64,000 bases of DNA from contig CAWCIZ010000003.1 in NCBI GenBank assembly GCA_963795855.1, forward strand, positions 96,001 through 160,000. The letters run 5' to 3'. This document shows, piece by piece, positions 721 through 62,264 of this stretch. Below the pieces are notes generated by a model, which was not told where the DNA came from, did not search any database, and saw only the letters and a list, made by a program, of their open reading frames with translations. Position 1 is the first letter of the stretch. Each line of letters begins with the position of its first letter. Source of the DNA: Vulcanimicrobiota bacterium. Lineage in GTDB: Bacteria > Vulcanimicrobiota > Vulcanimicrobiia > Vulcanimicrobiales > Vulcanimicrobiaceae. A program made the translations under genes and the position numbers.

Positions 721-2664
721 GGTTTGCCCGCCGCGCCTCCGAGCAGCGCGTCCAGCGGCGGCAGCGTGCCGCCTGCGAAGTAATCCAGCGATGCGGCGTA
801 CACCGCGTCCGCGCGCTCGATGTTGCGCTGCGCCGCGAGGCCATACCGCTCGAGGTTGGACGCGAGGTGACTTTCACGATCCTCGTAACGCCATGCCGAT
901 GCGTAGAGCGGCTCGAGTTCTTCGTAACCGTCGCGCAGCTCCCAGAACCAGTATTTCACCCAATAAAGATCGCGCCCCGAGGGGCTGCCCTTTTTGTGCG
1001 CATGAGCCTGCGCGTCGGTATAGTAGGCATCGATTTCTTTCGCCGCCTGAAACTTTCGCCCGATGAAATCGTCCTTGCGCGCGGCCAAAAACATGACGCG
1101 CGCCGCATTCGCGTGCAGCGGCGGAACGTTTTGGAGCAGATGCTCTTGCACGGCTTCAGCTTCCAGGCGAACCGGCCGTATGTCGACCGCGCTCATGTGC
1201 CGCGAGGCGCGCGGATCGAACGGGTCGGCCCACATCAGATAGTCGCTGCTGTAATCGTACGCGTCGGCGATTCGCGTCTGAATATCGGCTAGTTTGGCGA
1301 CGTCGTCGCCGTAGCGCGAATCGCTGCTGCCGAAGAACGCATACGGAAAATCGTTTTGGAAGCGAGCCGGGTCGACACTGCCTTGCTCCCACGCGCTCAC
1401 GCCCGCGTACAGAACCGGATACCACGTAGCTTCGAACAGTGATTCACCGTCGTCGTTCCAAACCGTCTGAAAAAGACCGAGCACGTGAGCGGCTTTTCCT
1501 TCGTCGATGAAGGTGCGCTCGTTGCGCATCGCGGTAGCGACGTCCGGAAAAATCTGATTCCAATTGCTGTCCCCGGGCGAAATCATCTGTTCGAAGCCGC
1601 CCTTGGCGAGCAGCGATATGTACGGAACGAAGGTTTTTTCCGCGCCGTAATGCCAGTTCACGACGACCGCGTTGCGCGGAATCAGCTTCATGATGGCCGG
1701 ATCGTTTTCGATGCCGTCGTCCCAAAGCATCAGGCGCGCTCCCGACGGTTTGATGATGTCGTTCATCTGACGAATGTGCTCGGCGTACACCTGCGTTTTG
1801 CCGCGCTGCGCAACCATCGCGCTCGTCTGCCCCGCACCGAGCGTCGACGTTTCGTCGGAGCCGATGTGAAAGAACGGCGGATGCGGTACGGCCCGCAGCT
1901 CGTCTTCGATCACCCGCTTCACGTACGGGACTGAAATCGAGGAAGCGGGACTCAGCAAGAACCCGTGCGGCAGTTCGGCGGCAGGCGCATATTTTTCGTA
2001 GCGCAGCGTGTTGTGCATGTGCGCGAACGTCTGCTGTTCGGGAATGAACGTTACGTGGAACCGCCGCGCGTACGCGTCGAGCTGCCGAAGCTGCGCGGGC
2101 GTGATGCCGTCGAGCGGCGCGGGCAGCGGGTCCTGCGGAGCGACGAATACGTGCTCCATGTACGGCGAGTAGCCGTTCATCTTGAACGCCGCAATCGTTC
2201 GAATGCGCTCTTCGAAATAACGCATCGTCGGCAGCGGGCCACGCGACACGTCGTCGGAAAGGACGCGCCAGTGCAGTGCCGGAGCGTCGCTAATGCTCAC
2301 GCACGGCAGGCGCCATTCGCCGCTTACGCGCTGCGGCGAGCTGCGCGAGCGTCATCGCACCGTAAAAGGCGCCGTCGCCGTCGCGCGCGACGATGGTCAC
2401 CTTGCCGTCGGCTCGCGTCTGCAGCTGATAGGCTTGCGGAGCGAGCGCAGCGTCGCGCACGATGCGCACGTCCGCGCGGCGCGCGAATGCGACCGGCACC
2501 GGAATGCCTAGTGCGCGCCACCGCTCGTCGATTTCCTCCAAAGCGCCGGGGTCGAAGCCGCGCTGAACGCGCAGCGCGCGTTTGAGAGGAAACGAGCAAT
2601 TTTGCACTGCAACGGTCTGCGGTTTCGGCAGCAAGTGCAAAACCAGTGCCGCGGCGGCGATCAT
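717..2664 (-). CDS. Glycoside hydrolase family 20 (beta-N-acetylhexosaminidase), split by one frameshift at about 2338
   Basis: N-terminal GH20b-like domain (LLPKPQ...AYQL...GAFYGAMTLAQL, ORF 2290..2664) joins the catalytic domain (DAPALHWR, FHIGSDET) in ORF 717..2300. Confidence 0.85.
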
Positions 2665-3054
2665 GAATGCAGCATAGCGGCGTCGCGCTTGTCGAATGCG
2701 TCGCTCAAACGCGCAAGCGAGCCGTCGAGCTTTTCGCTTCCCATCGCGCGAATTCGTGCGGCGGTCTCGACGACGTCCGCATCCGCGTTCAGCGTCGCGT
2801 CAATGCGCTCCGGCGACGGATCGCCGTCAAAAGCCCGAAACGCCGGCTGGTTGAGGAATTCGCACCGAAGCAAGATCCGGTCGTAGGCAGACCGCTCGTC
2901 CGCCGAAAGATTGTCGACGTCCGTCTGCGGCAGGCTCGGCCAGCGTCTCGCCGACAAAGGCCCGGATTTGCTCGTCCGAGCGCAGACGCTGGGAGGCGTC
3001 GAGATAACCGCTAAACCCGTCGATAACAGAACGAATCCGTTCGAGCGCATTCAT
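2661..3054 (-). CDS. Hypothetical helical protein, frameshift at about 2934
   Basis: ORF 2827..3054 (MNALERIRSVIDGFSGY...) and ORF 2661..3050 (LPQTDVDNLS...) join into one protein after removing one base. Its stop overlaps the GH20 start (ATGA). Confidence 0.6.
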
Positions 3055-3110
3055 CGGCGACGAGCTACGACGGTAATCCCCGCAGGCCTCCCGGCCGAAA
3101 ACCCGATCGG

Positions 3111-4055
3111 ATGGTCATGGCTGTGCTCGTGGGCGTGCTGGCCGCCGGCGGACTCGCGGGCCTGGCGGTGTTCGCTTTACGCTATGTGAACGAACGCGAC
3201 GAAATGCGGCGGCTGCGCTCGCTGTTTTCGCGTTACGTGCCGGAACACGTCGCCGACGAGATTCTCGCGCGCCGCGATTTGCATCGCCTCTGGGCGCAGC
3301 GTCACTACGCGACCGTTCTCTGCTGCCGCATTCGCAACTTCGGTTTTTTCTCCGAGGATTTGAGCGCCGAAGAGACGTTGCGGCATCTCAATGAATTTTA
3401 TGCCGTTGCGGGACGAGCGATCGTGCGGCACGGCGGCGTCATCGAACGCCTGCACGCCGACGGCATCACCGCCGTTTTCGGCGTCTTGACCGCGGACTCG
3501 TTCCAAGAGGAGCGCGCGCTCCGCGCGGCACTGCGCATCGTCCGCCTTGCGAACGCAATGAATGCGCGATGGCACGCGCAAGGGCGCAGACCTTTCCAAG
3601 TCTACGCCGGCGTGAATTCCGGCGCGGTCGTTGCGGGCGAAGTCGGCTTTGCGCAGCGGCGCGAATTCGCGATCGTCGGAAATCCGGCCCACGTCGCTTC
3701 ACGTCTGCAGCAAGCGGCGGAAGAGATCAACGCGTACATCCTGGCGGCCGCCGCAACGTACGAACCTGTTGCGGAGCAGTTCGTGGCGCTCGCCACGAAC
3801 ACGCTGCCGCTGCCTGGGTTACGGCGCCTACAGAAGGCGTACATCATTCGCGGCTTGGCACGGCGCGAAGAGGAAGAGCTGCTGCACTTGCCGCCCGAAA
3901 TCGCCGCCGTGCAGACCGTCATCGAAGACCCGCCGGCGGTTGCACCGCCGGTCGTAACCATCGCACCGCATTTCTCCGGCGTCGACAACGCTTTCCCGGC
4001 CATGCCGGAGCTGCCGCCCATTTCGGGCGACTATCAAGCGCCCCAAAGCTTCTAG
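3111..4055 (+). CDS. Membrane-anchored class III adenylate/guanylate cyclase-like protein with degenerate active site
   Basis: N-terminal TM, then LFSRYVPEHVA, TVLCCRIRNF, ADGITAVFG, GVNSGAVVAG and IVGNPAHVASRL, which follow the cyclase fold motifs. Confidence 0.8.
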   Translation: MVMAVLVGVLAAGGLAGLAVFALRYVNERDEMRRLRSLFSRYVPEHVADEILARRDLHRLWAQRHYATVLCCRIRNFGFFSEDLSAEETLRHLNEFYAVAGRAIVRHGGVIERLHADGITAVFGVLTADSFQEERALRAALRIVRLANAMNARWHAQGRRPFQVYAGVNSGAVVAGEVGFAQRREFAIVGNPAHVASRLQQAAEEINAYILAAAATYEPVAEQFVALATNTLPLPGLRRLQKAYIIRGLARREEEELLHLPPEIAAVQTVIEDPPAVAPPVVTIAPHFSGVDNAFPAMPELPPISGDYQAPQSF

Positions 4056-6276: not shown

Positions 6277-6282
6277 CTCACG

Positions 6283-7822
6283 CTAAAGCAGCGCGTTCGC
6301 CAGCGCCGTCAACGACTGCTGCGATTGCGACTGCGCGGTAGGGAGCAGCACGTCGACGGTTATTCCGTATCCGTCGACCGAACGGCCGTCGCCATATGCG
6401 TCCGTGCGGCTCAGCGCCAAGCGGAACGGCACGCGCGAGTGTGGCAGCACGAAGTATCCGGGCTGCGTAAATCCCATGACGCCGAACGTGCTCGTGCCCG
6501 CAATGACCGTGTCTGGCAATCCGGCCAGAACGTACGTCATGTATTCGCAATCGCTTCCGCAACCGCCGTCAACGAGCGCCACGATGCGGGTTTGCCCGGC
6601 CTGTTGCGGATGAATGCTGAAGTGATGGTCGCGCATGCTTCGATCGCTGCTTTTCACCTGGGGCTGCACCTCGCAGTTCGGCGTAGCGGAGCCGCGCAAC
6701 GCATCGACGATCTGCTGCAGTACTTGTTGCAATCCGCTGGATACCGGCGGGTGCAGTCCCGCGGCGAGTTGCTGCTGGAGTCCGAAAGAAAGCGCCGTCG
6801 TAAAACATGACGTGGTTCCGGATTGCGACATGCCGGAGGCGATCTCGATCGCGCTTTCAGCGAACCAATTCGTGAGAATGTCCTGCGGCGCGTTTCCGCC
6901 GTCATTGCCGCGCAGGTCGAATATCACGAGCCGCTCTCGGCCGAGGTTCGGCGATTTCGAGAGCGCGGCGCGAAGCGCCTCGTTGTTCGCGTCGGTAAAC
7001 GTCGGCAGCCGCAGATACGCGATGCCGTCGGCGAGGAACTGATACACCGGCTTTTGCGCCGGCGGCGTAACTTGCGGCGTGGGCGTAAGCGCGACGTTTT
7101 GCGCGCCGCATCGCAGGCTCGTGGGCGTTCCAAGGCGCTTGGGATAACTGACGTACCAACCGTCAGCAAAATGCGCGCCGTCCCAGACCTGCACCGCGTG
7201 CGGCTGTTGACCGGCATCGTGCAGCGCGAGTTTGGCCGAATGACCGTCCTGGAATCGCATCGACGAGCACGCCGACGCTGCCTGCGCGAGAGCCGCACTT
7301 GCGGATCCGCTCGTAAACGCGGTGAAGTCCGGAACGCCCGAATGATTGTCCAGTTGCACGTTTTCCAAGCGGCCCCAGGGAGCGAACGCGTCCCGCAATG
7401 ACAGACTTCACGTTGCCGCTCTTCGCGAGCTGCGCATCCCGACTGCGGAACATCGCATCCCAATTCCAACCTCGCGCGCTTGCGGGCTGATAGCCCGAAT
7501 AGGCCTTCTCCAAAAGAAAACGCAGCACGGGTAAGTCCCGGCGCAGCGCGGAGGCCTGCACCGGATAGTCTTTCTTCGCACGCAGTGCGTCATAGAAGGA
7601 GCGATACCACGCGAACGGCACGACGAACGATCGGTTCGAGTACGGCGGCGCGTACGGGTCCGACTTGATAATCCCGCCCGGCGGGAGCTTCACCCCGAGG
7701 GCGCGCCAGCGAGCGTCTTCCGCCTGGATCTGCGCCTGCGGCACGCGAACGGGCGGACCCGGAGCAGCGGCCATGAGCACGAGCAACGAAAGGCCGAGCG
7801 CGGCGGAACGCACCGATTTCAT
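6283..7822 (-). CDS. Secreted S41 family peptidase, frameshift at about 7405
   Basis: Signal peptide MKSVRSAALGLSLLVLMAAA, then IAYLRLPTF, IFDLRGNDGGN, LVDGGCGSDCE and DGYGITVD. Confidence 0.8.
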
Positions 7823-11190: not shown

Positions 11191-13315
11191 TCAGGTGCCT
11201 TTCGGCGCGCCGATGTAGCGGATCCACTTGAAGAAGAGCGCGTGCTGCGTGCTCAGCTGATTCGGATTGCCGTACACCACGTAAAACTCGTTACGAAGTG
11301 CGAGAAAATGAAACGCCGCCGTCAAATTCATCGCGTCGATTGGCGGAGTGCCGGCGGTCGGCACGTACCCAAACCCCGTGGGTGCGAAGATTCCGACGAT
11401 GCGGCGCGCACCGATATCCATCGACGCTCGGTGACTGAATTGCCAATCCAGCGACGCGCGCTCTAGCGTCTCGTTCGCGCCGATTTCGTTCCATGACGTG
11501 CCCGGACCGAATGCGGAGTACGGCGCGTAGTGTGTGCTGTCCGCCTCCAGTGAGAGAATCAACGGGCGCGCGAGCCGAATTGCAGCCGAACTGTACCAAC
11601 TCGCCAGGAACCCGTGATAGTAGTGGCCCTGCGAATACGTCGCGCTCGATGGCGTCGCGGTGTTCGCCCGGTATGAAAGCGAAACCCCGTTTTGGTTGAA
11701 CGGCAGCATCTCCCCATCCGGCATACGCAAATACGACGAGCCGCCGCCGACGCTAAACCCAAACAGCGACCGCGTACGAATGGACGCGGAGGCGTACTGA
11801 TCGTTCTGATTTGTTTGGCCGCCGTCATCATGATAGCGGTCCCACGAGGTGTTGAGCGATAGCTGCTGCAGGTACGACTTCGGCGAATAATTATAGGTTT
11901 TACTCGCGCTCACGCCGATACCGGTAATGCCCGGATGGCTTACGTATCCGTCGATTGGCTGGAACTGCGAGCCCACATGCTGGTAGTCGACGATGAAGTT
12001 CGACGTTTGATCGATGGCCCCGACGCCGTATTCTTGGTAGCCGCCCTGCGCAGGATCCGTAACGAACGTTCCGCGATCGGTTCCGGCATTGGCGAACGCC
12101 AGCAAATGATTATGCGAGAAGGAGTACCCGGTCACGATCGTGCTGGTTACGTCACGGATGCCCGGTGCGTCGACGCTGACCCGTTGCACGCTGACCTGCG
12201 CCTGATGATCGCGATTCGTTTGGAACAGGCCGAACGTTTGCGCGTCGTCGCTGCGCTGGGAACCGATCGCATCGAATGCGGCGAACGTTGCCGGCCCTTG
12301 GGTGCCTTCGACCGCGTACCCTTGACCGAACGCCGGAATGCTCGGAGTGTACAGCGTCGTCGGACAATTCCAGCAGCCGAAATGGCCGTTGAACTGCGAA
12401 CCGATCTGCGTGAAGAAGGGGCGCACCTCTTGATAGAACCGTGGAAACTCCTGCGGCGTTATCGACTGCTGATCGATTTCGACGTTCGAGTAATCGGGAT
12501 GCAGCGTCGCCACGAATGAGGCGGTATCCGTAATCGGCAGCGAGAAGTCGGCGCCCATGCGTGACGTGCTGCCGCCGGCAACCGGCGAGGCCATTTCACC
12601 CAGCCCGTACACTTGCAGTCGAGCCGGCGGGCGCGCGGCACCGCGCGCAACCTCAATACCGTTCAGCGTGCCGATGTAGTTTACGTCGATGTCGGCTTGC
12701 ATCGCCGGGTTGTCACTCCAGATGTTGCGGGATCCGCTCGCCGTGGTGATCCGCACGAACTGCGCGCGCCAGCCTCTTCGATCCGCCCGAACGAATCACG
12801 TCGAGCGGAATGCGCTCCGTTACCTGATATCCGTAAGAAGTGTTGTGGCCGGCGGATTCCCACTGCGGCGCGTATGCGCTGTTCTCGGTCGAACTCTGAT
12901 CGCGCGCGCCGTTTACGTTCGCCCGAAAGATGTACATGAAACCTTGCGAACCCTGCGGATAGAGCGCCAGCGCAACGTGATCGTCGTTGAGGACGGCGCC
13001 GCCGTTCGTGGTCTGTCCAACGGTGAGCGGCTCGCGCTGGCGGACGTCGAAAGCGAAGTAGAGCGCTTCATGCGACTGGGCGATGTACACCGTCGTCGGC
13101 TCGCTCGCCGCCCGGCGGTAGATGAAATCGTAAGGTAAGTTGATGCGCGCTGCTCCGTTCCACGACGCGTCGATGACGCCGTTTACATGAGGCGCGGTCG
13201 CGAGCTGCGGTACGGTGATGGACGGATCTGCAGAGGACGTGGCTGCGCGCGCCGTGCTCGTAAAGAACAGCATTGCGTACGCCAGCGTCGCCACCCGGAA
13301 TACGAAGCGGGACAT
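11191..13315 (-). CDS. Secreted CBM9-like plus DUF5916-like outer-membrane protein, frameshift at about 12773
   Basis: Signal peptide, APHVNGVIDASW, ALYFAF, ATLHPDYSNVEIDQ...FYQEVRPFF, beta-rich C-terminal half. Confidence 0.7.
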
Positions 13316-14348: not shown

Positions 14349-15972
14349 ATGAAGCGCTGGACGCTGATCGCCGCCGTGCTGGTGCTCTGCGCCTGCGGGC
14401 GCACGGGCGGCGGTTATCGTCCAGTGCCCGACACGCTCAACGTCGGCACGGCGATCGAACCGAACAGCCTCAACCCGCTGCTCACGAGCGAGTCGATCGA
14501 AAACGATCTCGACGGCCTGATCTTCAACGGCCTCACACACGAAGACGACCGCAACGTCACGCAGCCGGACTTGGCCACGGTCGTGCCGACGCAGCAGAAC
14601 GGCGGCATCAGCAAAGACGGCAAAACGATCACCTATCACTTGCGCAGGGGCGTGCGCTGGCAAGACGGCGTGCCGTTCACCTCGAGTGACGTCAAGTTCA
14701 CGTGGCAGGCAATCATGAATCCGAACACGCTGACCGGCAACCGCGTTCCGTACGATCAGGTCAGGAGCGTGGATACGCCCGATACAAACACCGTGGTCTT
14801 CCACCTCAAAGGGCCGTACGCGCCGTTCGTCGCCGAAGCGTTCAACAGCACGACCATCGAGTACATAGTGCCGCAGCATCTGCTCAGGAACTACCGCGAC
14901 CTTAACAAAGTGCCGTTCAACGTCAAACCCGTCGGGACGGGGCCGTACAAGGCTGGTGCGCTGGGCGCACGGCGATCGCATCGAGTTCACCGCGAATACT
15001 CAGTATTTCAGAGGCGCGCCGAAAATAGCGAAGATCGTCGTGCACGAGATCCCGGACGAAAACACCGGCATGAATCAGCTGCGCGCGCACGAGATTCAGT
15101 GGTTTCCGTACATCAGTGAGGCCTCGTACAACCTGGTCAAAGGCACGCCCGGCATTCGCATCGTTGTGACGCCGCAGAACGCGTACCGCGCGATCTACAT
15201 CAACACGGAGCGGCCGATTCTTTCCGATGTTCGGGTGCGTCAAGCCATCGCGTACGCCGTCGACAAGAAACAGCTCGTCGATAAGGTGACGCACGGCACG
15301 GGGATCGTTGCCACCGAAGATATGCCGGACTTCATGTGGGCGTACGATAAGAGCGTGCCCGTCTATGCTTACGATCCGGCGAAGGCGCGCGCGCTCTTGG
15401 ACGCGGCCGGCTGGCATGCCGGGCCCGACGGCGTTCGCGTGCGCAACGGGCGGCCTTTGGCATTCACCATGGCGCTGCGGCAAGGCGCCGCCGGCGATAG
15501 CTCGATGGCGGTGATGATCCAGTCGTGGCTGCGCGATATCGGCATGCAGATTTCGATAAAGTCGTATCCCGGCTCGATGCTGTTTGCGGTTGGACCCTCC
15601 GGTGTGCTGGAGCCGGGGAAGTACGAACTCGACATCAGCGGCTTTACGCAAACGGCCGATCCGGACAATTCCGCGACCTTCACGTGCGCAACGCGCCCGC
15701 CCAACGGGTTTAATTGGACGCGCTACTGCAGCGCGGAAATGGACCGGCTGCAGGCGCAAGCGATTTCGACGTACGATCGCGCCAAGCGCAAAGCCGTGTA
15801 CGCGAAGATCGAGGCGTTGCTCGCTCACGACGTCCCGCAAGTCTACATCTACTATCAGCCGCAGATTAGCGCGATTAGTGAGGATCTGCAGAACTTCAAG
15901 CCCAGCATGGTCACGCCGATGTGGAATGCCGAGCAGTGGAGCTTCGGGGGCCTTAAAGCGCGAGTTCCATGA
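14349..15972 (+). CDS. Peptide ABC transporter substrate-binding lipoprotein (family 5), frameshift at about 14952
   Basis: Lipobox LCAC, EPNSLNPL, YHLRRGVRWQDGVPFTSSDVKFT, PVGTGPY, DVRVRQAIAYAVD, NWTRYC. Confidence 0.9.
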
Positions 15973-16276: not shown

Positions 16277-17847
16277 CATGCCACGATAACGGAGTCCCCC
16301 GTCTCCGATTGCACGCGACAAACGCACACCGAAAGCAAAACGCCAGCCAATTTGCGGGAAGTATCGCGCGGGCACGCCATCACTTGCGCTTGTGTAGCAC
16401 AGAAGATATAAACTGAAGCGCCACGATGATCGCGAGCCATCCAATTCCGAACGGAATACGCATGGTTACTAATGAAGGCACGACTAAGGTCGGGGGCCGT
16501 CACCCGTGGGTGCCGGGCTTCGGCATTATCCAGTATCGATAAATGGATGGAGACTGCCATGCAACAGAAGCGAGTTCAACGTAGTAAGCGCCGCCGACAA
16601 CACGGAACGGGATCGCTTCGTGAAATCGCTCCAGGCAAGTGGCAGCTCCGCTACAAAGGGGAATCCGATATCGCATTCGCAACGACGAAAAGCGCCGCTT
16701 CCGAAGCCCTGCAAGTTTTCGTAGACAGGGTACGGAACGGCGGAATAGCGTCTGGCGATCGCATAACGTTTGACCAGCTCGCCGACCTTTATCTCGAATC
16801 GAAATCTCGCTCGAAGGCACCCACATCACTGGCTTGGTATAAGCGCAACCTCAAGCAGCACCGTTCGACCAGCGATTGGTGCCATGAAGTTGAGAGACTT
16901 CGTGCCATCCATGTGCAGCGGATGCTCGATGGTGCTAAGGATAAGTCGCGAACGAGGCGCAAAGGGGAATTGCTCGGTGCGACGAGCCTGCGAAACTTAC
17001 TTGTGCTGGTGCGTGCGATTCTGGCATGTGGCATGAAGCAAGGAATCCTTCGTGAGAACGTTGCGAGCAAAGTTGAGCCTCCTCGCGCTGAGCACGTGGA
17101 GCGCCCGGCTCTCACGCCCCGGGATGCGGCAAACCTTCTTCGTGCAGCTCAGGGGACGGAACTATTCGCAATCATAGCGACTGCGATCGCTACGGGAGCC
17201 CGACGCTCCGACCCCTGCGCCCTGCGCTGGAATGATCTGGATCTTGAAGCAGGGACACTCGCCATTCGTCGCTCTGCCGCAAATGTCGATAAGCGCGTGG
17301 TCATCGGCGAAACGAAGACCAAAAACTCTCGGCGGACAGACCACTTGCCGGCGTTTCTAATAACGTTGCTCGACCAGCATCGGCACAGGCAGCTGGGCGG
17401 TTACAAGCACTATTTGGCGAGTTCGACGGACGGCGTCGTCAGCAGGATGGCTATGTTTTTACGACGCCGACGGGCGACATTTGGGACCCGAAGGAACTGT
17501 CGCGCCAATTCGCACGCTTCGTGCGTCGTGAAAAGCTCCCGCACTTTCGATTCCACGACATGCGGCCCGGTTTTGCCAGCCTCGCGTTCGCGGCGGGCGT
17601 ACCCCTCGCAGTCGTGAGCAAATCGCTGGGTCACGCGAGTATCGGCATCACTGCGAACGTTTACACGCATCTACTGACGGACCAGAAGCGCGAAAAGGCA
17701 GCCATCATCGACGCCTATCTCGGGGCTGCGATTGCGTCGAAAACAGAGCCCGCGTAGCGCGAAAACAAGCGCATAGTGGATGGTTATTGGATCGCGGAAG
17801 CATCCGTGCAATGAAAAGGCCCGTCAAATCGGCCAAAAAGGTGGGAC
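16277..17847. mobile_element. Remnant of an integrative element at the 3' end of tRNA-Sec
   Basis: The integrase ends 90 bp from the tRNA CCA end. The segment looks less GC-rich than its flanks, and the left neighbour is truncated. No convincing second att site; the left boundary is approximate. Confidence 0.6.
16559..17757 (+). pseudogene. Tyrosine recombinase/integrase (phage/ICE type), degraded
   Basis: GGAGA RBS; N-terminal RRQHGTGSL..GKWQLRY; ATGARRSDPCALRW; RFHDMRP; LGHASIGITANVYTH. Indels at about 16861, 16900 and 17398. Confidence 0.85.
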
Positions 17848-17941
17848 TGGCGGGAAAGTGTAGGAATCGAACCTACCAGCCGAGTTACCCCGGCCTCAGC
17901 AGTTTTGAAGACTGTGCGGGCCACCAGACCCGTACTCTCCC
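17848..17941 (-). tRNA. selC: tRNA-Sec (anticodon UCA)
   Basis: GGGAGAGTACGGGTCTGGTGGCCCGCACAGTCTTCAAAACTGCTGAGGCCGGGGTAACTCGGCTGGTAGGTTCGATTCCTACACTTTCCCGCCA. It has an 8-bp acceptor stem, TCA anticodon, long variable arm, GTTCGATT T-loop and encoded CCA. Confidence 0.96.
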
Positions 17942-18032
17942 ATAGTTGCCGTTTCGCGGGCTGTTAGCCACATCACCGCGCCGTCCTTTGCGAGAAGGAC
18001 GCGTTGCAGAAAAGCCACGAAATTACACCTAG

Positions 18033-19529: not shown

Positions 19530-20486
19530 TTACGCTTCGAGCAACGCAAGCCGCTTACGAATCGCCCACGCGCCGCGTTTGAATTCGCGGCTCAGCGCGG
19601 CGACGATCGCCGCCTTCGTCAAGCCTGCTGCGTGCAAGTCGCCGTATCGTTTGCGTAAGCGCTGCGATTCCGCGGCGCTCCACGCTCTGCCCCGATTTCG
19701 CACGACGTGCGGACGCGGCTCCGGCCGCAGCAACGAACCCGCTTCGACCGCGTCGATGCGTTTCACGCACGCTTCGTAGGCCTTCTTCGAAATTTCGAAA
19801 CCGGCGAAGCGGCGGTTCATGCCGACGGCGACTGCGCCGGTCGATCCGCCACCCATGAAAAAATCGCAAACGAGATCGCCCTCGTTGCTGCTGTACGCGA
19901 TCATTTTTTCTAAAAGCGCTGCGGGCAGTTCGTTTTTGTTCTTTTCGCGGCCTGGCTTGTACTCGCGATTAACGATCCAAACGTCCTCGCGATCCCGATA
20001 GTTGGCCGAGCCGCCGTCTTCTGCGCTCGCATCCAGCGGAAAGCGGGCTTGCAGATTGAACGTTCGGCGCGCGCCCGGCTTTGCGTAATAGAGAATGTGA
20101 TAGTGCGAGGACACGAATTTGACCGACGTGTACACGCCGAACGCGTACTTCCAAATCAAGTGATTGATCTCGACGAGGCTGGTAGCGCGCAGCGCGTCGA
20201 GCACGTCGTACAAATTCGTATAGCCCGAAACGACGTACAACTGTCCGCCTGGGCGCAGGACGCGCTCGGCCTGAGCGACCCAAGCGCGGCTGAATGCGTT
20301 GTAGGCATGCTTTTCCACCTCGACGTAGCCGTCGATCACAAAGCGCTCGTCGCGGTTGTAATGCCGATGCAGACGGTCGCCCTGAATACCATACGGCGGG
20401 TCGGTGATGACGAGATCGACGCTCGCGTCGGGCAGGTGACGCAATGCTCCCTTAACGCAATCCGCATTGACTAAAAGGCCGGCCAT
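19530..20486 (-). CDS. Orphan beta-class DNA amino-methyltransferase (N4-C/N6-A) with C-terminal HTH-like extension
   Basis: Catalytic DLVITDPPY precedes the SAM-binding DFFMGGGSTG...GFE. No nuclease gene is adjacent. Confidence 0.92.
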   Translation of the reverse strand: MAGLLVNADCVKGALRHLPDASVDLVITDPPYGIQGDRLHRHYNRDERFVIDGYVEVEKHAYNAFSRAWVAQAERVLRPGGQLYVVSGYTNLYDVLDALRATSLVEINHLIWKYAFGVYTSVKFVSSHYHILYYAKPGARRTFNLQARFPLDASAEDGGSANYRDREDVWIVNREYKPGREKNKNELPAALLEKMIAYSSNEGDLVCDFFMGGGSTGAVAVGMNRRFAGFEISKKAYEACVKRIDAVEAGSLLRPEPRPHVVRNRGRAWSAAESQRLRKRYGDLHAAGLTKAAIVAALSREFKRGAWAIRKRLALLEA

Positions 20487-25144: not shown

Positions 25145-27777
25145 TACACCAGAACCGGTTCGTCGGAGTATCGCGATGTGAATGTCAGTGCGCCGCGCAC
25201 GTCGTCGTAGTCCACGACGACCCGCTGCCCATCGCGCACGTCACCGGCAAGTATCTTCCGTCCCAGCGGCGTTTCCAACTCCTTCTGAATCGCACGTTTG
25301 AGCGGGCGCGCACCATACACCGGGTCGTATCCGGTTTTCACCAGATGGCGTTTCGCCGCATCGGTTAGTTCCAAATGAATGCGCCGCTGCGCCAGCCGCT
25401 CGCGCACGCGATGCAATTGAATCTCGATGATCTCCGTCAGTTCTTCTTCGGTAAGCGCGTGGAACACGATCACCTCGTCAACGCGGTTCAGAAATTCGGG
25501 ACGGAAATGCTGACGCAGCTCGTCCAATACCGTCGCGCGCATCACCGCGTACTCGGCGCCGCCCATATCGCCCTTGTAGTCCAAAATGCGATGGCTGCCG
25601 ACGTTCGAAGTCATGATGACGATCGTGTTGCGGAAATCGACGGTTCGGCCTTGGCCATCGGTCAAGCGTCCGTCGTCGAGAATCTGCAAAAACACGTTGA
25701 ACACGTCCGGATGCGCCTTTTCGATCTCGTCGAAAAGAATGACGCTGTACGGACGGCGACGCACTGCTTCGGTGAGTTGTCCGCCTTCTTCGAAACCGAT
25801 GTATCCCGGTGGTGCGCCGAGCAGACGCGCGACCGTGTGTTTCTCCTGATACTCCGACATGTCGATGCGAATCATCGCGCGCTCGTCGTCGAAGAGATAC
25901 TCCGCAAGTGCGCGCGCTAATTCGGTCTTTCCGACGCCGGTTGGCCCGAGAAAAATGAACGAGCCGATGGGGCGGTTCGGATCCGCAAGTCCGGACCGCG
26001 AGCGCACGACCGCTTCGGCGACCGCGTCGACCGCTTCGTCCTGCCCAACCACGCGCTTGTGCAATTCCTCGTCGAGATGCAAGAGTTTCTGCACCTCGCC
26101 TTCGAGCATTTTCGAAACGGGTACGCCCGTCCAGCGGCTGATCACCTCGGCGATGTCCTCTTCGTCGACTTCTTCTTTGGAGAGCCGCGCTTGGCCGTCG
26201 CGTGAAGACAGACGCTCTTCCTCTGCCTGAAGCTGTTTTTCCAGGCTCGCGAGTTTTCCGTATTTCAATTCGGCGACGCGGTTGAGATCGTACTGGCGCT
26301 CGGCCTGCTCGATCTGCACCTTCGTCGCTTCGATCTGCTCGCGCAAATCGCGCAGTTTGACCGCCGCCGCTTTTTCGGCTTGCCAACGGGCCTGCAGCGC
26401 GCGCTGGTCTTCTTTGAGGTCCGCCAGTTCTTTTTCGAGCTGGTCCAAACGGCGTTTGCTCGCGTCGTCCGTTTCCTTGCGAAGCGCTTCGCGTTCGATT
26501 TCGAGCTGCATCACGCGGCGCGTAAGTTCGTCCAATTCCTGCGGCATGGAGTCGATTTCGGTGCGAAGTTTTGCCGCCGCCTCGTCGACGAGATCGATTG
26601 CCTTATCAGGCAAGAACCGATCGCTGATGTAACGGTTGGAAAGCGTCGCCGCAGCGACGAGCGCGGAATCCTTGATCCGCACGCCGTGGTGCGCTTCGTA
26701 CTTTTCTTTCAGGCCGCGCAGAATGGAAACCGTGTCTTCGACGCTCGGCTGATCCACGAAAACTGGTTGAAAGCGCCGCTCGAGCGCCGCATCCTTCTCG
26801 ACGTATTTGCGGTACTCGTCAAGCGTGGTCGCCCCGATCATGTGCAATTCGCCGCGCGCGAGCATCGGTTTGAGCAGATTGCCCGCGTCCATCGCACCCT
26901 CGGCTTTGCCGGCGCCGACGACCGTATGCAATTCGTCGACGAAGAGCAGAATCTGGCCCTCGGAGTTCTGCACGTCTTTCAGGACCGCTTTTAGCCGTTC
27001 TTCAAATTCACCGCGATATTTCGCGCCGGCGATGAGCGCGCCCATGTCAAGCGCAACGACGCGTTTGTCTTTCAAACCTTCAGGCACGTCGCGGCGAACG
27101 ATGCGCTGCGCGAGCCCTTCGACGATCGCGGTTTTACCGACGCCGGGCTCGCCGATCAGCACCGGGTTGTTCTTCGTGCGCCGCGAGAGCACTTGGATGA
27201 CGCGGCGTATTTCGTCGTCGCGGCCGATGACCGGATCGAGTTTTCCGCGCTCGGCTTCGAGGGTCAAATCGCGCCCGTAGCGCTCCAAACTCTTGTACGT
27301 GCCTTCCGGGTTTTGCGTCGTGACGCGCTGATTGCCGCGCACCGCGCGCAGCGCCACGAGCAGTTTGTCGCGCGTCAGACCGAGCTCGCGGAAGATGCGG
27401 CCTACGGCGCCGCTGTTCTGCGTCATCGCCAGCAGCAAATGTTCGACGGAAACGTAGTCGTCTTGGAGCTGCTTCGCGTCGCTTTCCGCTTGCGTGAAGA
27501 GCCGCGTGAGATCGGGCGCGACGGTAACGGTCGCCTGGTCGGCGCTCGATCCGGTCAAACGCGGCAAACGGCCGATTGCCTCGTCGGTTTTCGCGGCAAC
27601 CGTCTTCGGATCGACGCCGGCTTCCTTGACGACGTCCGGCGCGATGCCGCGGTCCTGATCCAACAGCGCCGCAAGCAGATGCTCGGGCGTGGTCTGCGTG
27701 TTGTGCTCGTGCAGTGCGCGCGTATATGCGGCGTTCAGAGCGTCTTGAACGCGCTCCGTCATGCGATCTACATTCAT
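25144..27777 (-). CDS. clpB: ATP-dependent chaperone ClpB
   Basis: Two AAA+ modules ([16 protein letters not shown]) and the coiled-coil M domain; 877 aa. Confidence 0.97.
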
Positions 27778-28862: not shown

Positions 28863-30739
28863 GGGCGGCCGATTTCGCGCGCAGCATTCGGTAATCCCCG
28901 CTGCGCACGGTAATGCCGCGCGCGTCAAACCATTCCAGCAGCGGCACCGCATATTTGCGTGAGGTGCCGATCAAATCGCGGAACTGCGCCATCGTCATCT
29001 GCTTGTTGCTGCGCAAGAACTGCTCGACGCGTGCGTGAATCTGAGCGATCTGCGTGCCCCTGTAGAGATCGTCGCCGACCTTGACCAGCGCTCCTTTCGC
29101 GAGCAGTGTATCGAATGCCTTACCGATTCCCGCAATGCGCGATTGCTTTACCGCCGCGACGACCTGCGCGAGCGGCGTGGGTGTAAACGGCCCCGATCCG
29201 TTCCCCGGGACGTGTTCTTCGAAAAACGCTTGCTGCTCGGCGGAAATTTTTGGCGCGTGCTCCGCCAGCGCAAAATAGCCGGCGCGATGCGCGATTCTGC
29301 CCTCGTCGGCGTACGCTCCGAGAAGGCGCAGCACGAGCGGCTCGTCCACGCGAAGCGCGCGCGAGAGCGCAAGCGACGTGCTGCCCATCGCCCACGGCTC
29401 CGTGCGGTGCTGTGCGGCGAGATGTTCGTTCACACGTTCGAGCAGCGCCTGCGCGCTCGCCGCATCGACGAATGCAGCGGGCCGAGCAACCCGCACGACG
29501 TCCCCGCGTTCCGCCAGTGCCTCCAGCGCCGGCGCTATTGCGTCTTCTCGCAGATTCGCTTCACGCGCGATTTCCGCGCTCGCCATCGCGCGCAAACCCG
29601 CTTTTCGCAACACCGCCGACACCGCAGACTTCATGCGGATTGAGCGCCGGCTCCAACGCTCGTGAATCCGCGCTTTGCGCGCCCGAGCTGCCTTCGATCT
29701 TTCCGCCGCCGAGCAAATTCTTCGGCGAAAGCCGCCGCACTACGAAAGCCGTTCCAGGGTACGCGACCGTCGGCCGGCGCAGATAGACCTGCGCCTGCAA
29801 CTCGACCGGCTCTTGCGGAACGTCGCCAAAAACCAGCGTTCCGAGAATCTCTGCGGAGCCGATATATGCGCGAACGTCATTGCGTTTGCGCAGGATTGGC
29901 AACGCCTCCGCGAGCGGCGTAAAGCGCACCGTGAAAGAATCCACGTGTGCGAATTGCGGCGCGACCAGCATTTCGCCGCGTTCGATCTCGTGCACGTCGA
30001 CGGCCGGGATGTTGAGCGCTACCCGAGCGCCGCCTTCGACTTTCTCACGCTTCTCGCCGAAGCTTTGCAGGCTGCGCACGCGCACGTTCTTTTCCGACGG
30101 CTGCAGTTTGAGCGTGTCGCCGACGGCAATTCGCCCCTGCATCAACGTTCCGGTAACGATCGTTCCGAGGCCGGGAAGTGCGAAAACGCGGTCGATCGGT
30201 AAATATGCCGGCGCTTCGGGGTCGCGCGGCCGCAGGTTCTTCAACGCCTGATGAATCGCATCGCGCAGCGCGTCCATGTTCGCGCCGGTGACGGTCGATA
30301 CGGCGAAAATATAGGCGTTTTCCGCGATCGTGCCGCGCAGTTGACGGTGCACGCGCAAACAGGCCGCGCCGCCTTCTTCCGGCGGGATCAGATCCATTTT
30401 CGTCAGCACGACGATCACTTCGCGCACGTTGAGGTAGCGCAAAATCTGAAGGTGCTCGACGGTCTGCGGCATCACGCCTTCGGTGGCAGCGATGACGAGC
30501 AGCAGCACTTCCATGCCGGCGGCTCCCGCGAGCATATTGTGCAAAAAACGTTCGTGTCCCGGAACGTCGACGATGCCCGCTTCGACCCCGTCGTCGAACC
30601 GCAGGTGCGCGAATCCCAAATCCAGCGTCATCCCGCGCAATTGTTCTTCGAGCCAGCGATCGGGATTGGTTCCAGTGAGCGCGCTCACCAGCGTCGACTT
30701 GCCGTGGTCGACGTGTCCGGCGGTGCCGATGATGTGCAC
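28855..30739 (-). CDS. selB: Selenocysteine-specific elongation factor, frameshift at about 29628
   Basis: IGTAGHVDHGKS, RGMTLDLGF, DVPGHERF; C-terminal winged helix FRDLIGTSRKYAVPLLEWFD. Confidence 0.95.
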
Positions 30740-30740
30740 G

Positions 30741-32088
30741 TTAGTTCGTCAAATCTGCGAGCGCGCCGATGACGCGCAGATCGTCGCTCGGAAAAATCGT
30801 GCGCAGGTCCAGCAGCAGGCGGCCTTCGTCGATCCGTCCGACGATCGGCGTCGATCCGCGGCGTAACGCGTGTGCGGCTGCATCGGCGCCTTGCGGCGGC
30901 GCGAGCGCAACCGCGACGGACGGCAGCGCGCTTTCGGGCAGCGATCCACCGCCGACGTACGCGGTGGTCTCGACGACGCGGCAGTTCGCAATCTCATTTG
31001 CGTAGCGGTCCGCGCGCGAGCGCAGCGCGCCGATCGATGCGCCGAGCATCGCATAGAACGGAATCTCCGCCCGCGCGTCCGGTGTGAGGTAGAGTCTGAC
31101 GGTTTGCGCGAGCGCTGCGAGCGTCATTTTGTCAACGCGCAGCGCGCGCAGCAGCGGATTGCTCCGCAATCGCGCGATGAGCACGCTCTTACCGACGATG
31201 ATGCCGGCTTGCGGGCCGCCGAGCATTTTATCGCCGGAAAATGCGACGAGATCGATACCGTCCGACACCGCTTCCTGTACCGTACGTTCGTGCGGCAAGC
31301 TGATACTCCGCCAAATCGACGAGAGCGCCGCTGCCCAAGTCTTCCACGAGTGGAATGCCGGTGCGATTTGCCAGCGCGGCGAGGTCTTTCGCTTCGACCT
31401 CATGCGTGAAGCCGCTGATGCGGTAGTTCGAAGGATGCGAGCGCAGCAGCAGCGCGGTATCGGCGGTGAGCGCGCGTTCGTAGTCCCTCAGATACACTTT
31501 GTTCGTCGCGCCCACTTCGACGAGGCGCGCGCCGCTGCGCTGCAGCACGTCGGGCAGCCGAAAGCCGCCGCCGATCTCGATGAGTTGATTGCGCGAAACG
31601 ACGACCTCGCGATTCTTCGCGAACGTGTCGAGGATGAGCAGCACGGCGGCGGCGCAATTGTTGACGACCAGCGCGTCTTGCGCGCCGGTGACGGATTGCA
31701 AGAGCAGCGTCGCGCGCGCGTATCGCGAACCGCGCCCGCCGCGGTCCAAATCGTACTCGAGATTCGAATAGCCGCTTCCGGCGTCGTTCACCGCATCGAG
31801 CGCGGAGGCGGCCAGCGGCGCACGGCCGAGATTCGTGTGCAAAAGAATGCCGGTCGCGTTGACGACCGGAACGAGCATCTCGAACGCGCTTCGTTCCAAT
31901 TCCGCCAGCACTTGCGCGGAGAGTTCCTCGAAGCCGCCGGCGCTCTCGCGAACGCGCGCCGCATCGAGCGTCGCTCCGATGCTCCGTTTGACGTGCTCTT
32001 TTCCGAGCAGCGCTTCGTACCCGGCGATACGCGGCTCGGATAAAAAACGATGCACGGGCGGAATCCCGCGCAGCGTTTCATTGCTCAT
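30741..32088 (-). CDS. selA: L-seryl-tRNA(Sec) selenium transferase, frameshift at about 31298
   Basis: NATGILLHTNLGRAPL, VNNCAAAV, EIGGGFR, EDLGSG, FSGDKMLGGPQAG. Confidence 0.95.
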
Positions 32089-32496: not shown

Positions 32497-35017
32497 CTAG
32501 ACGCCCGGGGCGGTTTCAGCCGGTTCGCCGGTGATCTCCGTAATCTGTGTGGCCTGTTTGCCCAAATTCGTGATGGCGATGACTTCATCGCCTTCGCCCA
32601 GCCGCTGCAGGCGGACGCCCTTGGTGGAACGGCCGGCTTTGCGGATGTCGGCGACGCGCAGGCGGATGACCTGATTGGACGAGGTAATCATCAGCATTTC
32701 GTCGTCCGGCGCGACGAGGAGTCTGGTCGACGACCTTGCCGATGTCCTCGCGCTCCTTGGCGAATGCCTTCACGCCCTTGCCGCCGCGCGAGGTGTGACG
32801 ATAATCGTCGATCGGCGTGCGCTTGCCGAAGGCCTGCGTCGTGACGAGCAGCACTTCCCGGCGGTTGTCTTCGAGCACGTCCATCGCGACGATGCAGTCG
32901 CCCTTGTCGAGCGTCATGGCTTTGACGCCGCGCGCGTTGCGTCCCATCGGGCGCACGTCTTTCTCGTTGAAATGCACGGCCATGCCGTTCACGGTACCGA
33001 GAATGATGTCGCGAGTTCCGTCCGAGAGATCGACCGCCAGCAGTTCGTCGCCTTCGTCCAAATTGATCGCATTGAGTCCGTTGCGGCGCACGTTCGAAAA
33101 CTCGTCGAGTTTCGTTTTCTTGATCACGCCGTTCTTGCGTGACCATGACCATGTAACGCTCGCCCTCGAAGTTACGCACCGGGAAGACTGCCGTCACCTA
33201 TTCGCCCGGCGGCAGCGTGAGCAGATTGACCAGCGCGGTGCCGCGCGCTTGCCGCGTCGTGTCGGGAATCTCGAATCCGCGCAGGCGGTACGCGCGTCCT
33301 TTGTTCGTGAAGAACAAGACGTGATCGTGCGTCTTCGTGATGAAGAAGTTGCGGACGACGTCTTCTTTTTTCAGATTCGAGATGCCGATGACGCCGCGGC
33401 CGCCGCGGTTCTGCGTCTTGAACGTGTCGACGGAAACGCGCTTGATGTATCCGCCGACGGTGTACGTCACGACGACGTCGATGTTCGGAATCAGCGCTTC
33501 GACGGAGAACTCGTCCTCGGCCGGAATGATCGCCGTGCGGCGGTCGTCGCCGAACTTCTTCTTGACCTCGAGAATCTCGGTCCTGACGATGCCGGCGATG
33601 CGGCGCGGGCTCTTCAGAATGTCTTGCAACTCGGCGATGAGTTTGATGAGTCCCGCGTACTCCTCCTCGATCTTCTGCCGCTCCAAACCGACGAGCGTGC
33701 GCAGGCGCATGTCGACGATCGCGCTCGCCTGCACGTCGGAGAGTTTGAATCGCGCGGTGAGTTTCTGCTTGGCTTCGTCGGTCGTTTGACTGCCGCGGAC
33801 GATTTCGATGACTTCGTCGATGTTGTCGAGCGCAATGCGGTAGCCTTCCAGCAGATGCGCGCGTTCTTCGGCTTTGCGCAGATCGTACTGCGTGCGTTTG
33901 GTGACGACGACTTTGCGGTGCGCGATGTAATGCTCGAGCAGTTGCTTGAGCGAGAGCACCTGCGGTTCGACGGCGATCGTTCCGTCAGGGCGCGGTTCGC
34001 CCACCGGCACCAGCGCCAGCATGTTGAAGCCGAAGCTCGACTGCAGCGGGGTGTGCTTGTAGAGCTGGTTGAGCACGACTTTCGGCGTCGCACTCTTCTG
34101 CAACTCGACCACGACGCGCATGCCTTTGCGATTGGACTCGTCGTGCAGCGCGGAGATGCCTTGAATGCGCTTCTCCGAATGCGCTTCCGCGATCGCTTCG
34201 ACGATGCGGCTCTTGTAGACCTGATACGGAATCTCGGTGATGATGATCTTCTGGCGGCCCTTGTCTTCGACGATCTCGGCCTTGCCGCGGATCGGAATGG
34301 AACCGCGGCCGGTGCGGTACGCTTCGCGGATCGCTTCCTGCCCCATGATGATGCCGCCGGTGGGGAAATCGGGGCCGGTGACGATCTCGGCGAGCGCGTC
34401 GTCGGTCACCGCAGGATCGTCGATGATTGCCGCAATCGCATCCGCAATCTCGTTCAAGTTGTGCGGCGGAATATTCGTCGCCATGCCGACCGCGATACCG
34501 CTCGAGCCGTTGAGCAGCAGCTGCGGCAGTTTGCCGGGCAGAACGCTCGGCTCCATTCCCTGATTGTCGAAGTTGGGCGTGAATGCGACGGTTTCTTTAT
34601 CGATGTCGCTCAGCAGTTCGAGCGATGGACGCGCCAAGCGCGCTTCCGTGTACCGGTACGCTGCGGGCGGATCCGGATCGATCGAACCGAAGTTGCCGTG
34701 CCCGTCTACGAGCGTATAGCGCAGCGTGAAATCCTGCGCCATGCGCACGAGCGCGTCGTATACCGAGTGTCGCCGTGCGGATGGAACGACTTCAATACCT
34801 CGCCGATGATACCGGCGCACTTGCGGTGCTGCTTGGACGGATCCATGCCCATCTCGCGCATCGCGAAAAGAATGCGCCGCTGCACCGGTTTGAGTCCGTC
34901 GCGCACGTCCGGAAGCGCGCGAGACGCGATGACGGACATGGCATAGGAGAGATAACTCTCCCGCATTTCGTCTTCGACGTTGATCTGCGAGATGATATCG
35001 TTATTGCTGGGGTTCAA
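32497..35017 (-). CDS. gyrA: DNA gyrase subunit A, broken by indels at about 34767, 33137 and 32722 and an in-frame TAG at 33198
   Basis: [36 protein letters not shown], GyrA-box QNRGGRG, C-terminal beta-pinwheel repeats. Confidence 0.95.
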
Positions 35018-35459: not shown

Positions 35460-35879
35460 ATGATTCGGACATTTCACAGCGAGCAAGACTTCCTCGATTT
35501 CGCCGCCGTCTTTGCACGCGATCTGCGGCCGGGGGACGTCGTCGGCCTTTCGGGACCGCTCGGCGCGGGCAAAACCGCATTCGTGAAGGCCGTCGTAAGT
35601 GAACGGCTCGGAACGGATCCCGCGAGCAGCCCCACGTTCACGTTCTGGCACCGCTACCCCGGAACGCCGCCGATCGATCATCTCGACCTGTACCGCGTGG
35701 ACGACCCGGCGGAAATCACCGAACTGGGTTTGGACGACGCTTTCGACGGCACGTCCATCGTGCTCGTCGAGTGGTGGCGTAACGCGCCGGAACTGTTGCC
35801 GCCGGTCCGCTATGAAATCGACATTCAAGGCAAGGGATCGGACGCGCGCTGCGTCACGCTGCGGACGCCCGCCGAATGA
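35460..35879 (+). CDS. tsaE: tRNA t6A biosynthesis ATPase TsaE
   Basis: GPLGAGKT, SSPTF, HLDLYR, VEW. Confidence 0.95.
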   Translation: MIRTFHSEQDFLDFAAVFARDLRPGDVVGLSGPLGAGKTAFVKAVVSERLGTDPASSPTFTFWHRYPGTPPIDHLDLYRVDDPAEITELGLDDAFDGTSIVLVEWWRNAPELLPPVRYEIDIQGKGSDARCVTLRTPAE

Positions 35880-60536: not shown

Positions 60537-60573
60537 TCCGGTACCGGCGGTAGATGAAACCGCCGGTACCGGA
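60537..60573. terminator. Perfect 15-bp hairpin between convergent genes
   Basis: TCCGGTACCGGCGGT-AGATGAA-ACCGCCGGTACCGGA, about 10 bp past the stop at 60583; no U-tract. Confidence 0.55.
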
Positions 60574-60582
60574 GTCGTGGAA

Positions 60583-62264
60583 TTACGGCGTACCCAGATG
60601 ATCGAGCACGACCCGTGCGAGCGTTTCTGAAGTCGCCAGCACGGGTGAGCCGTTCTGGTGCACGAGCAACTGGAACGCCATACCGGCTTTCAGCACCGTT
60701 AGCCGGCCGTCTTTCCACGACGCCTTGTCGCCCAATCCCGCGATGAGTTGCGCGTCGTTAAATGCCTCTGAGAACTGCGCTGGAATGCCCGGAAGTCCGG
60801 GGAGATTCAGCACCGACTGCACGACATGCAGGCAGCTGAAACCGTGGCACGGCGCTGCGTGAACAGGCTGCATGACGAGGAGAATGTTTCGCGCCACGCC
60901 GTGCGTATGTGACGCGACCGCCCACGCGCACTCGTTCGGCGAGGGGTGCTGCGCGGCGCCCAACGATCCAACGCCTACGCCTAGTGCGGAAGCAACGTCG
61001 GGAGCACCGAGCATCGCGCATGGATCGACTTTCAAATTCGTACCGTTAGACGGAGGTTGCGCCGTCGTCGTCTGCTGCGATTGCGTTGCGGTCTGCGTTT
61101 CAGCTTGAGGTGCAGGTTGCGCTGCAGCAGCAGGCTGAGCCGGCGGCGGGGTATTCAACGACTCCCAGCCGGGTGCCATCGTTACCGTTCCGCCGCACGT
61201 CAAACTGATACGGAAGTTCGCCGGCATGCGGTACTGCGGAACGGGGATTGACACCATCTCCTTCTTCTGCGTGGCCGTGTCAAACGTCACGAGCAAACGC
61301 GTGGGCGCGTCTGCGGCATTAAAAACGCCGCCGCTGATCAGCTGATCGAACGTGTACGGGACGCCCGGAGGGAACGGAATATTTCGCGAACCGAGCGCAA
61401 ACCCACCGACCACGTTGGCCGACGAGGTGTTGTTACCGCTCTTCGTAGAGAGGAACTCGTCGCTCACGCTCGTGGGCGCGACTCGATCGCCGGGGTCGGC
61501 CACACTACCCGGAAAGACCTTACCGTGCGTGATGTTGACCCATTCTTGTCTGACGTGCCAACCAATTTGATCCCTTGCCTTCGTTCCGACGGGAAACGGC
61601 GTGACGGCAAGGACGCGCATTTTCCAGACGCCGTTCGACATCCATTGATTCATGCAGCCGCTGGTTGCGTTGAGCTGCGTGGAGCCGCCCTGCGCCTGTG
61701 CTGCGGCCCCGCTTGCAACGCAGCCGAGCTTGTAATGAAAGTTGTATTGCCTGCTCGAAAAATGCGGCTTGTTCGACGTTGAAACGACGGCGTTGTCGAA
61801 GACTGCGTCCACGCGCCCTCGGTTTGTCGTTCGGATCAACGCTCATGTTCGGGCCGAAATAGACGGCCCGGTACGTCAGTTCGCCGGAAGGCGCCATGTC
61901 ATCGAACGTAAGCCTGCTCGAAATTGTGCCCTTCTACTTGGAGTGCGGAGTTCGAGAGCTGCAAATCCATTGATTTCAATGACGAATCCGCCGGAGCGAG
62001 TTCGCGCGAGGTGCCGTTGCGCCACACCTCCGTGACTTGCCATCCGGTTTGTTTGGCGCCGTCCATGATCGGCTCGACCTTGGTAACTTTTGCGCGCCAA
62101 ACACCATTGAAGAGCCACTGGTTCAAGCAGCCCGTTCGCGCATTGGTTTGCGCAAGAGCCGGCGTAGGCAGTAAAAATTGAGCCAGCGCTAGGCTGGTTA
62201 TTAGAACGGCAGTCGTTATTCCGCGAAACGATCGCGTAAGTGCGACACGATCTCTGGGTGACAT
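60583..62264 (-). CDS. Secreted protein with two copies of an unknown domain plus a Cys-containing C-terminal domain; frameshifts at about 61913 and 61813
   Basis: Signal peptide; GCLNQWLFNGVWRAKV and GCMNQWMSNGVWKMRV; P/Q/A/T linker; VDPCAML...NECAW. Confidence 0.7.

Follow-up and report, generated by a model that had tools for sequence, protein, structure and literature searches.

The 64,000-bp stretch analysed here (the window) occupies positions 96001–160000 of contig C3 of assembly G000, the present assembly of a bacterium of the Vulcanimicrobiaceae (phylum Vulcanimicrobiota; 3.06 Mb in 6 contigs, 62% GC, 86% complete by markers). Genes in the window, among them gyrA, selA and selB, are interrupted by one-base indels lying at or beside the word AGCT. 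Names of close homologs point to Ca. Baltobacteraceae / Vulcanimicrobiota. We are almost certain that what was observed is real and that the genes are intact, and modification of AGCT is very probably what causes the breaks. A methyltransferase encoded in the window, designated P0002, probably makes N4-methylcytosine (m4C) at this word; taken as a whole, consensus errors at AG(m4C)T written by P0002 would be the best explanation, and a likely one. The evidence throughout is comparison between assemblies and genes; a look-up with window positions 27000–36000 listed no sequencing run. Below, G, C and L followed by numbers denote assemblies, contigs and loci, respectively.

Frame breaks in the window

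A preliminary description of this stretch had reported ten indels that a one-base fix in or beside AGCT would repair, none of them in a long homopolymer, and a possible swap of AGCT to GACT. All 11 strings were found where they had been placed, and no run of more than 2 bases occurs near any of the ten indel sites. The sites are listed below, with the posterior of the AGCT fix where one is given.

2338..2342, plus strand: extra base beside AGCT, splitting a GH20 hexosaminidase-like gene; posterior 0.50; gap relative to relatives
2932..2936, plus strand: AGgCT insertion; posterior 0.54; gap relative to relatives
7403..7407, plus strand: AGaCT insertion adjoining an S41-peptidase-like open reading frame (6283–7398); posterior 0.69
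7441..7444, plus strand: GACT where relatives imply AGCT, with loss of a Trp codon; a single case, of a class that is not significant
12771..12775, plus strand: AGcCT insertion splitting a DUF5916-like gene of ~720 aa; break at 12772 against the G012 and G042 orthologs
14950..14954, plus strand: AGgCT, compatible with a +1 break bounded to about 14937–14972
29626..29630, plus strand: AGaCT insertion in selB; posterior 0.60
31297..31301, plus strand: aAGCT insertion in selA; posterior 0.46
32720..32724, plus strand: AGtCT; break confirmed, AGCT fix possible and not favoured; posterior 0.04
34766..34768, plus strand: AG-T, one base missing in gyrA; posterior 0.31
61911..61915, plus strand: AGcCT insertion; posterior 0.93; gap relative to relatives

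That these indels break the frame of otherwise intact genes was confirmed against whole genes of relatives, which are other species of the genus or family and not the same strain, at nine of the ten sites (2338, 2932, 7403, 12771, 29626, 31297, 32720, 34766 and 61911). The orthologs of gyrA, selA and selB are whole in relatives. When the indel sites were aligned as DNA to five relatives, one-base gaps appeared at 2338, 2932, 7403, 29626, 31297, 32720, 34766 and 61911; the G012 ortholog reads AGC TGG at the position matching 12771, and in G103 the GyrA site of the 34766 break has an inserted base of its own, AGaCT. At 14950 a +1 break is real, but its position could be bounded only to a range that includes AGGCT; a reference-free scan flagged 14949–14969, and removal of one base opens a 638-aa frame. 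The break at 32720 likewise holds, but most relatives favour a different nearby fix over that at AGCT; G005 reads AGCT at the counterpart of this site. In the alignable part of the window (45 kb) the frameshift caller detected 14 breaks and 10 of these were AGCT-fixable, close to the ten of 15 reported earlier. The swap at 7441 fits locally, since G002 and G005 encode the Trp, but AGCT>GACT/AGTC was rejected as a general error class, with 9 cases genome-wide against 4 in reverse and no excess of CGA|CT codons.

Distribution of breaks over the genome

For a frameshift map of G000, 976 genes were called in ~1.0 Mb of relatives' DNA; a frameshift-aware aligner matched 805 of them to G000, and 778 of these alignments passed. 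From 390 raw events, 165 were removed (61 for a neighbouring gap, 52 for nearness to an end, 31 for polarity and 21 for weak flanks), and the remaining 225 were merged into 190 (154 insertions and 36 deletions) across 511 kb. An empirical codon-pair model gave the location of each event, and the null came from 2,500 simulated indels located by the same procedure. AGCT ranked first among all 4-mers at the 190 events, with a posterior mass of 28.6 against 1.6 expected (17.7-fold), and the next-ranked motifs, CAGC and GAGC, overlap it. By the looser criterion of the preliminary description, 92 of the 190 events were AGCT-fixable (64/91 isolated and 28/99 clustered), as compared with 16% of the simulated indels. 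Thus the genome-wide 4-mer test that had been proposed came out positive, and the reservation that freedom in placing an indel might bias the count was covered by the simulated control, under which the enrichment holds.

A reference-free codon scan covering the whole of G000, which recovered 73 of the 154 known insertions, flagged 124 of 4,297 AG.CT words (AGCT with one extra base in the middle), 3.9-fold over background, the next motif reaching 1.2–1.8-fold. Extrapolation from this excess gives ~6–7% of AGCT sites broken, roughly 300 of them in coding DNA. Counts of the AG.CT 5-mers by themselves gave a weak signal (observed/expected ratio, O/E, 1.13 and 0.92). The most depleted 5-mer of G000 is TGWCA (O/E 0.49).

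Breaks in genomes with and without the methyltransferase

The breaks are consensus errors: the same region is free of them over 77 kb in two fragmented assemblies of the genus, G002 and G007 (0 in 76.6 kb of syntenic DNA), both of which carry the methyltransferase gene. In addition, breaks sit at different sites in each long-contig assembly. Nine events scored in G002 in the first contrast looked like mirror images of G000 errors and vanished when the syntenic region was examined under a two-sided polarity filter, and an initial contrast with G011, G015 and G031 (0 breaks in 55 kb) was uninformative.

The clpB–gyrA region then supplied most of the DNA for a comparison of 39 genomes of the family, selected mostly for a low number of contigs. 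The enzyme had a match in 17 of them (498 kb alignable) and none in 22 (566 kb alignable); the G094 stretch was barely alignable (520 bp). In carriers, 101 breaks were found and AG.CT accounted for 31 of 84 insertions, whereas the other genomes had 79 breaks and AG.CT in 2 of 63 insertions; in carriers outside the genus the figure was 19/59. Among genomes with at least 3 insertions, the AG.CT share was 0.16–0.67 in 8 carriers from six genera and 0–0.08 in 7 others, so that the two sets were fully separated; break-free genomes (five carriers and ten others) are uninformative on motif share. The corresponding P values, 3e-7 pooled and 6e-4 per genome, ignore kinship and are overstated, because kin are not independent. 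It was also observed that the methyltransferase gene is itself in two pieces in the error-rich assemblies G012 (C1:779639-780575) and G017 (C20:43186-44131).

The methyltransferase P0002 and its relatives

The gene, which the preliminary description had overlooked, is as follows.

19530..20486, minus strand: orphan beta-class N4/N6 DNA methyltransferase P0002, PF01555, 318 aa (PF01555 E 1.6e-35)

P0002 carries a DPPY motif at aa 29 and an FxGxG-type motif at aa 209–216; the catalytic motif thus precedes the S-adenosylmethionine-binding motif, the order of the beta class. It is the sole PF01555 match in G000. Its gene is surrounded by those of an SDR protein, a histidine kinase, BipA and a VOC protein, with no adjoining nuclease (no search was made for an AGCT nuclease farther away). 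All 8 genomes of the genus had a match, as did 39 of 201 in the family, a tally that includes unpublished genomes, one match (G041) among them. Taking persistence as presence in at least 75% of a taxon with at least 5 genomes, the gene is persistent in the genus and not in the family.

Among the best 80 of 585 homologous loci in the genome_contigs set, the closest relatives outside the phylum had 54–62% full-length identity and came mostly from Methanoculleus, Methanoregula, Methanospirillum, Methanofollis and Methanohalophilus. P0002 is 56–57% identical to one PF01555 protein each in Methanoculleus chikugoensis, Methanospirillum lacunae and Methanohalophilus euhalobius, as compared with 23–26% for the paralogs, and the orthologs of these three methanogens form one clade (98/93 support), the only group common to them among the proteins scored. 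The homology group HG16 has been described as an orphan AG(m4C)T enzyme persistent in Methanoculleus and in the Methanoregula/Methanospirillum group, and as the beta-class group common to the genera Methanoculleus, Methanospirillum and Methanohalophilus; cluster 357 also occurs in Methanohalophilus mahii DSM 5219 (PMC10609329). M.Mma5219II is listed as an AGCT m4C enzyme (PMC6329791), and its name reads as that of an enzyme of DSM 5219. Since the supplement holds no sequences or motifs, the P0002 clade was matched to HG16/cluster 357 by taxon distribution and not by accession. Through this orthology we infer that the predicted specificity of P0002 is AG(m4C)T, for which the error footprint gives indirect support, and P0002 is the probable writer of the mark.

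Orthologs at 54–61% identity were also seen in scattered bacterial bins (L186, L190, L204, L217, L218, L228, L234, L237 and L242) assigned to Bacteroidetes, Marinimicrobia, Anaerolineales, Pelagibacteraceae, Clostridia, Elusimicrobia and Omnitrophota; L186, which is nested among Methanoregula-type sequences, may be a binning error. Atlas matches in Methanobacteriota and Nitrososphaerota clusters are a lead only. An archaeal positive control gave 18 noisy calls in 16 kb of loci, with polarity unfiltered.

Form of the error and proposed mechanism

Pooling gave 70 AG.CT events; the inserted base was A in 26, T in 26, G in 10 and C in 8, and the codon phase (12/52/6) was the same as that of intact AGCT sites. 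With the events oriented on the T/C form, the 3′ base was G in 53 of 77, against 37.5% expected, regardless of coding strand. The errors are centred between G and C, not on A.

We propose that in the host both strands of AGCT would carry a methylated C, most likely N4-methylcytosine, made by the orphan methyltransferase at 19530–20486, and that the breaks would be long-read consensus errors at the methylated motif in genes that are intact. The modified C of either strand would be miscalled in the reads from that strand, giving AGTT for one and AACT for the other, and a consensus keeping one base from each strand would then contain AGtCT or its mirror image AGaCT. Both this merging of strand-wise miscalls and nanopore as the platform are inferred. 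Strand-specific C>T/G>A miscalls at modified bases have been published for R10.4.1 reads (PMC11610603), and motif-bound assembly errors in methyltransferase-bearing lineages have been reported (PMC10687267).

Clustered breaks

The clustered class consists of dense tracts of one-base insertions free of any motif, including three breaks in dnaA. The tracts are as follows.

G000:C1:214000-265000, C3:996000-1003000, C4:225300-227700 and C6:130500-133500: dense motif-free insertion tracts

Non-AGCT insertions resembled two adjacent synonymous alleles in 50/80 and 31/43 cases, against a null of 45%, and this two-allele look suggests strain mixture or low depth in the clustered tracts. Comparable insertion tracts are also present in genomes without the methyltransferase. 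The dnaA gene (G000:C3:397519-398832) is in four pieces, with neither AGCT nor AG.CT at any of the three breaks; the 1 kb upstream contains no AGCT, and an origin-linked AGCT cluster at dnaA was thereby ruled out. Words that we take to be DnaA-box-like lie upstream of dnaA at about 397171–397338.

Other features of the window

At 19471, 32378, 33134 and 61810 the window has other +1 breaks, none of them AGCT-fixable. An integrase-like (tyrosine-recombinase) gene at 16472–17943 has three frame breaks (about 16865, 16900 and 17394) with low AGCT posterior, which may be real decay. The ~720-aa DUF5916-like gene (11191–13315) belongs to a multi-copy family with matches in 74 of 101 family genomes and up to six per genome. 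An intergenic element of ~100 bases, possibly a REP-like repeat, lies at about 35025–35126, 3′ of gyrA, and several copies of it are scattered through G000 and through other genomes of its genus.

Alternative explanations

That AGCT modification lies behind the breaks, as the preliminary description had proposed, is borne out by the enrichment, the intact orthologs and the gene-linked footprint, but it leaves out much of the map: roughly one half of the breaks fall in clusters, where the link to AGCT is only weak (28/99). Several further observations weigh against our explanation. The published motif-bound errors are mismatches, not insertions (PMC11610603, PMC10687267; as far as the accessible parts of these texts go). 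A C>T miscall model might predict an excess of AGCT>AACT/AGTT substitutions, so the lack of one counts against it: synonymous changes numbered 152 lost and 120 gained (control 1585 and 1358, P=0.53), and non-synonymous ones 9 and 4 (P=0.17, at low power). The allele implied by AGtCT is synonymous in 19 of 26 cases against 48% expected, a surplus that we attribute to the 3′ G context. AGCT is the most depleted 4-mer of G000 (O/E 0.59), and the depletion does not track the gene, samples of 20–100 kb giving O/E 0.48–1.11 in carriers and 0.63–1.25 in others; since fragmented congeners are also depleted (0.48–0.79) and the samples do not separate carriers from others, depletion was set aside as lineage history and not taken as a footprint. 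Because the carriers are related, a correlation with the footprint could arise for any clade-specific gene. As for the enzyme, the DPPY motif cannot tell N4-cytosine from N6-adenine methylation, database names of P0002 homologs are "adenine-specific", and P0002 was compared with orthologs from congeners of the organisms studied, not with the sequence of a characterised AGCT enzyme itself. Lastly, a Dam-like D12 enzyme (G000:C3:959828-961144) is present alongside P0002 in 29 of the 39 carriers.

This last point belongs to the strongest competitor, in which modification of AGCT is real but has a different writer or chemistry: the D12 enzyme, a C5 enzyme making 5-methylcytosine (m5C) as AluI-type enzymes do, or a clade-specific system outside the search. 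Kin have many genes in common, G000 is incomplete at the 86% given above, and there was no direct search for Ssp, BREX, Dpd or type IIG systems. The G005 ortholog of the D12 protein (82% identical) resembles Dam and DpnM, and the D12 protein aligns with both across the hairpin that reads the target, which points to GATC; errors at GATC numbered 10.0 against 7.8 expected in G000 and 13 against 4.4 in pooled carriers, not significant when corrected for about 136 motifs. The D12 gene (G000:C3:959828-961144; L045:6628-7922) is followed by a small PD-(D/E)XK (PF20472) gene, so that the enzyme may belong to a restriction system rather than being an orphan. Moreover, G017 has the footprint (4 of 25 insertions) with no D12 match at 1e-25, and the errors are not centred on A. 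Concerning a C5 enzyme, no PF00145 match was present in G012 and G033, two of the five footprint genomes searched, and the C5 methyltransferase of G000, split by a frameshift, lies at L030 (G000:C3:853679-857695) in a cluster that also holds HNH, Vsr and NgoMIV-type nuclease genes and is probably a type II restriction system. DndC and DndD had no match in G000, at its completeness and with Ssp-type systems not searched directly, two PAPS-reductase matches look like sulfate-assimilation genes, and PF02384 had no match in G000 either. As the P0002 orthologs are independently tied to AGCT, we consider another writer or chemistry unlikely, though it deserves more weight than the readings that follow.

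A second reading dispenses with basecalling error. AGCT would be polymorphic in the population, alongside AACT or AGTT, and the polisher would write both alleles next to each other. AACT and AGTT are indeed the commonest interspecies differences at AGCT, and the non-AGCT insertions described above look two-allelic more often than by chance. However, 13 of the 52 A/T insertions imply non-synonymous alleles and the codon phase is that of intact sites; AGCT events are isolated and outside the clustered tracts, the 3′ G bias is strand-symmetric, and genomes without the enzyme have many clustered insertions and almost no AG.CT. A polymorphism would, in addition, still need a motif-specific mutagenic mark, and we regard this reading as improbable. 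Least credible of all, at a very small probability, is that the frameshifts are real, as pseudogenes or as programmed slippage or editing at AGCT: the comparative nature of the evidence for this assembly and the possible decay of the integrase-like gene speak for it, but gyrA, selA, selB and dnaA would all be broken simultaneously, orthologs are whole in the fragmented congeners and the break sites differ between long-contig assemblies.

Implications

If the breaks are consensus errors at AG(m4C)T, several hundred genes are falsely split in G000 and in related enzyme-carrying long-contig assemblies, which skews pseudogene calls as well as protein catalogues and probably affects completeness scores too, and gyrA, selA and selB are to be read as intact. 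The analysis also yields a testable methylome call, AG(m4C)T, together with a candidate enzyme for an uncultured bacterial clade, and a method, as public assemblies alone suffice to tie a gene to a motif when errors are compared between carriers and non-carriers. This kind of artefact is already known; what is new is the candidate enzyme and the cross-genome test. No methylome study of Vulcanimicrobiota and no paper on AGCT insertion errors was found in the literature, in a search that left most subscription journals outside.

The marks GATC and AGCT go together in Methanomicrobiales and Nitrososphaerota, and a common epigenetic role has been proposed for them (PMC10609329); if our explanation is true, this archaeal pairing would extend to bacteria. 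The Dam-like gene co-occurring with P0002 echoes the pairing, though it may belong to a restriction system. More speculatively, a subclade of Vulcanimicrobiaceae might keep the AG(m4C)T and G(m6A)TC (N6-methyladenine) pair that is persistent in these archaea, with an enzyme shared with methanogens over the divide between the domains and a housekeeping role beyond defence, and the target words of methyltransferases from uncultured clades might be read off insertion footprints in public long-read assemblies, at catalogue scale and with no need for raw signal; we hold this tentatively, as a possibility with the odds against it.

Comparison with known systems

The errors of G000 share with those of the Modpolish and Hammerhead type (PMC10687267, PMC11610603) a short recurrent motif, occurrence in methyltransferase-carrying lineages and detectability through homologs. 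They differ in that the published errors are C>T and G>A mismatches at GCAGC, GCTGG and GATC, whereas those of G000 are mainly one-base insertions in the middle of AGCT, a word that occurs in neither text in the parts available.

With regard to the target word, M.EsaBC1I is a characterised AG(m4C)T enzyme and M.AluI produces AG(m5C)T, protection from AluI having been used as an assay (PMC3287169); both share AGCT with the proposed activity of P0002, but M.AluI is a C5 enzyme and thus of a different class. AGCT methylation has also been reported in Fimbriimonadia bacteria (bioRxiv 10.64898/2026.06.24.734251, as far as its available text goes). The closest counterpart is HG16 as described in the accessible part of PMC10609329: like P0002 it is a beta-class PF01555 orphan, conserved genus-wide and accompanied by a Dam-like enzyme, and P0002 has 55–62% full-length identity to proteins of the five methanogen genera named above. 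The hosts of HG16 are methanogens, whereas that of P0002, known here from its sequence, is a bacterium of the Vulcanimicrobiota; and the Dam-like partner of P0002, with a PD-(D/E)XK nuclease gene behind it, may form a restriction system rather than being an orphan.

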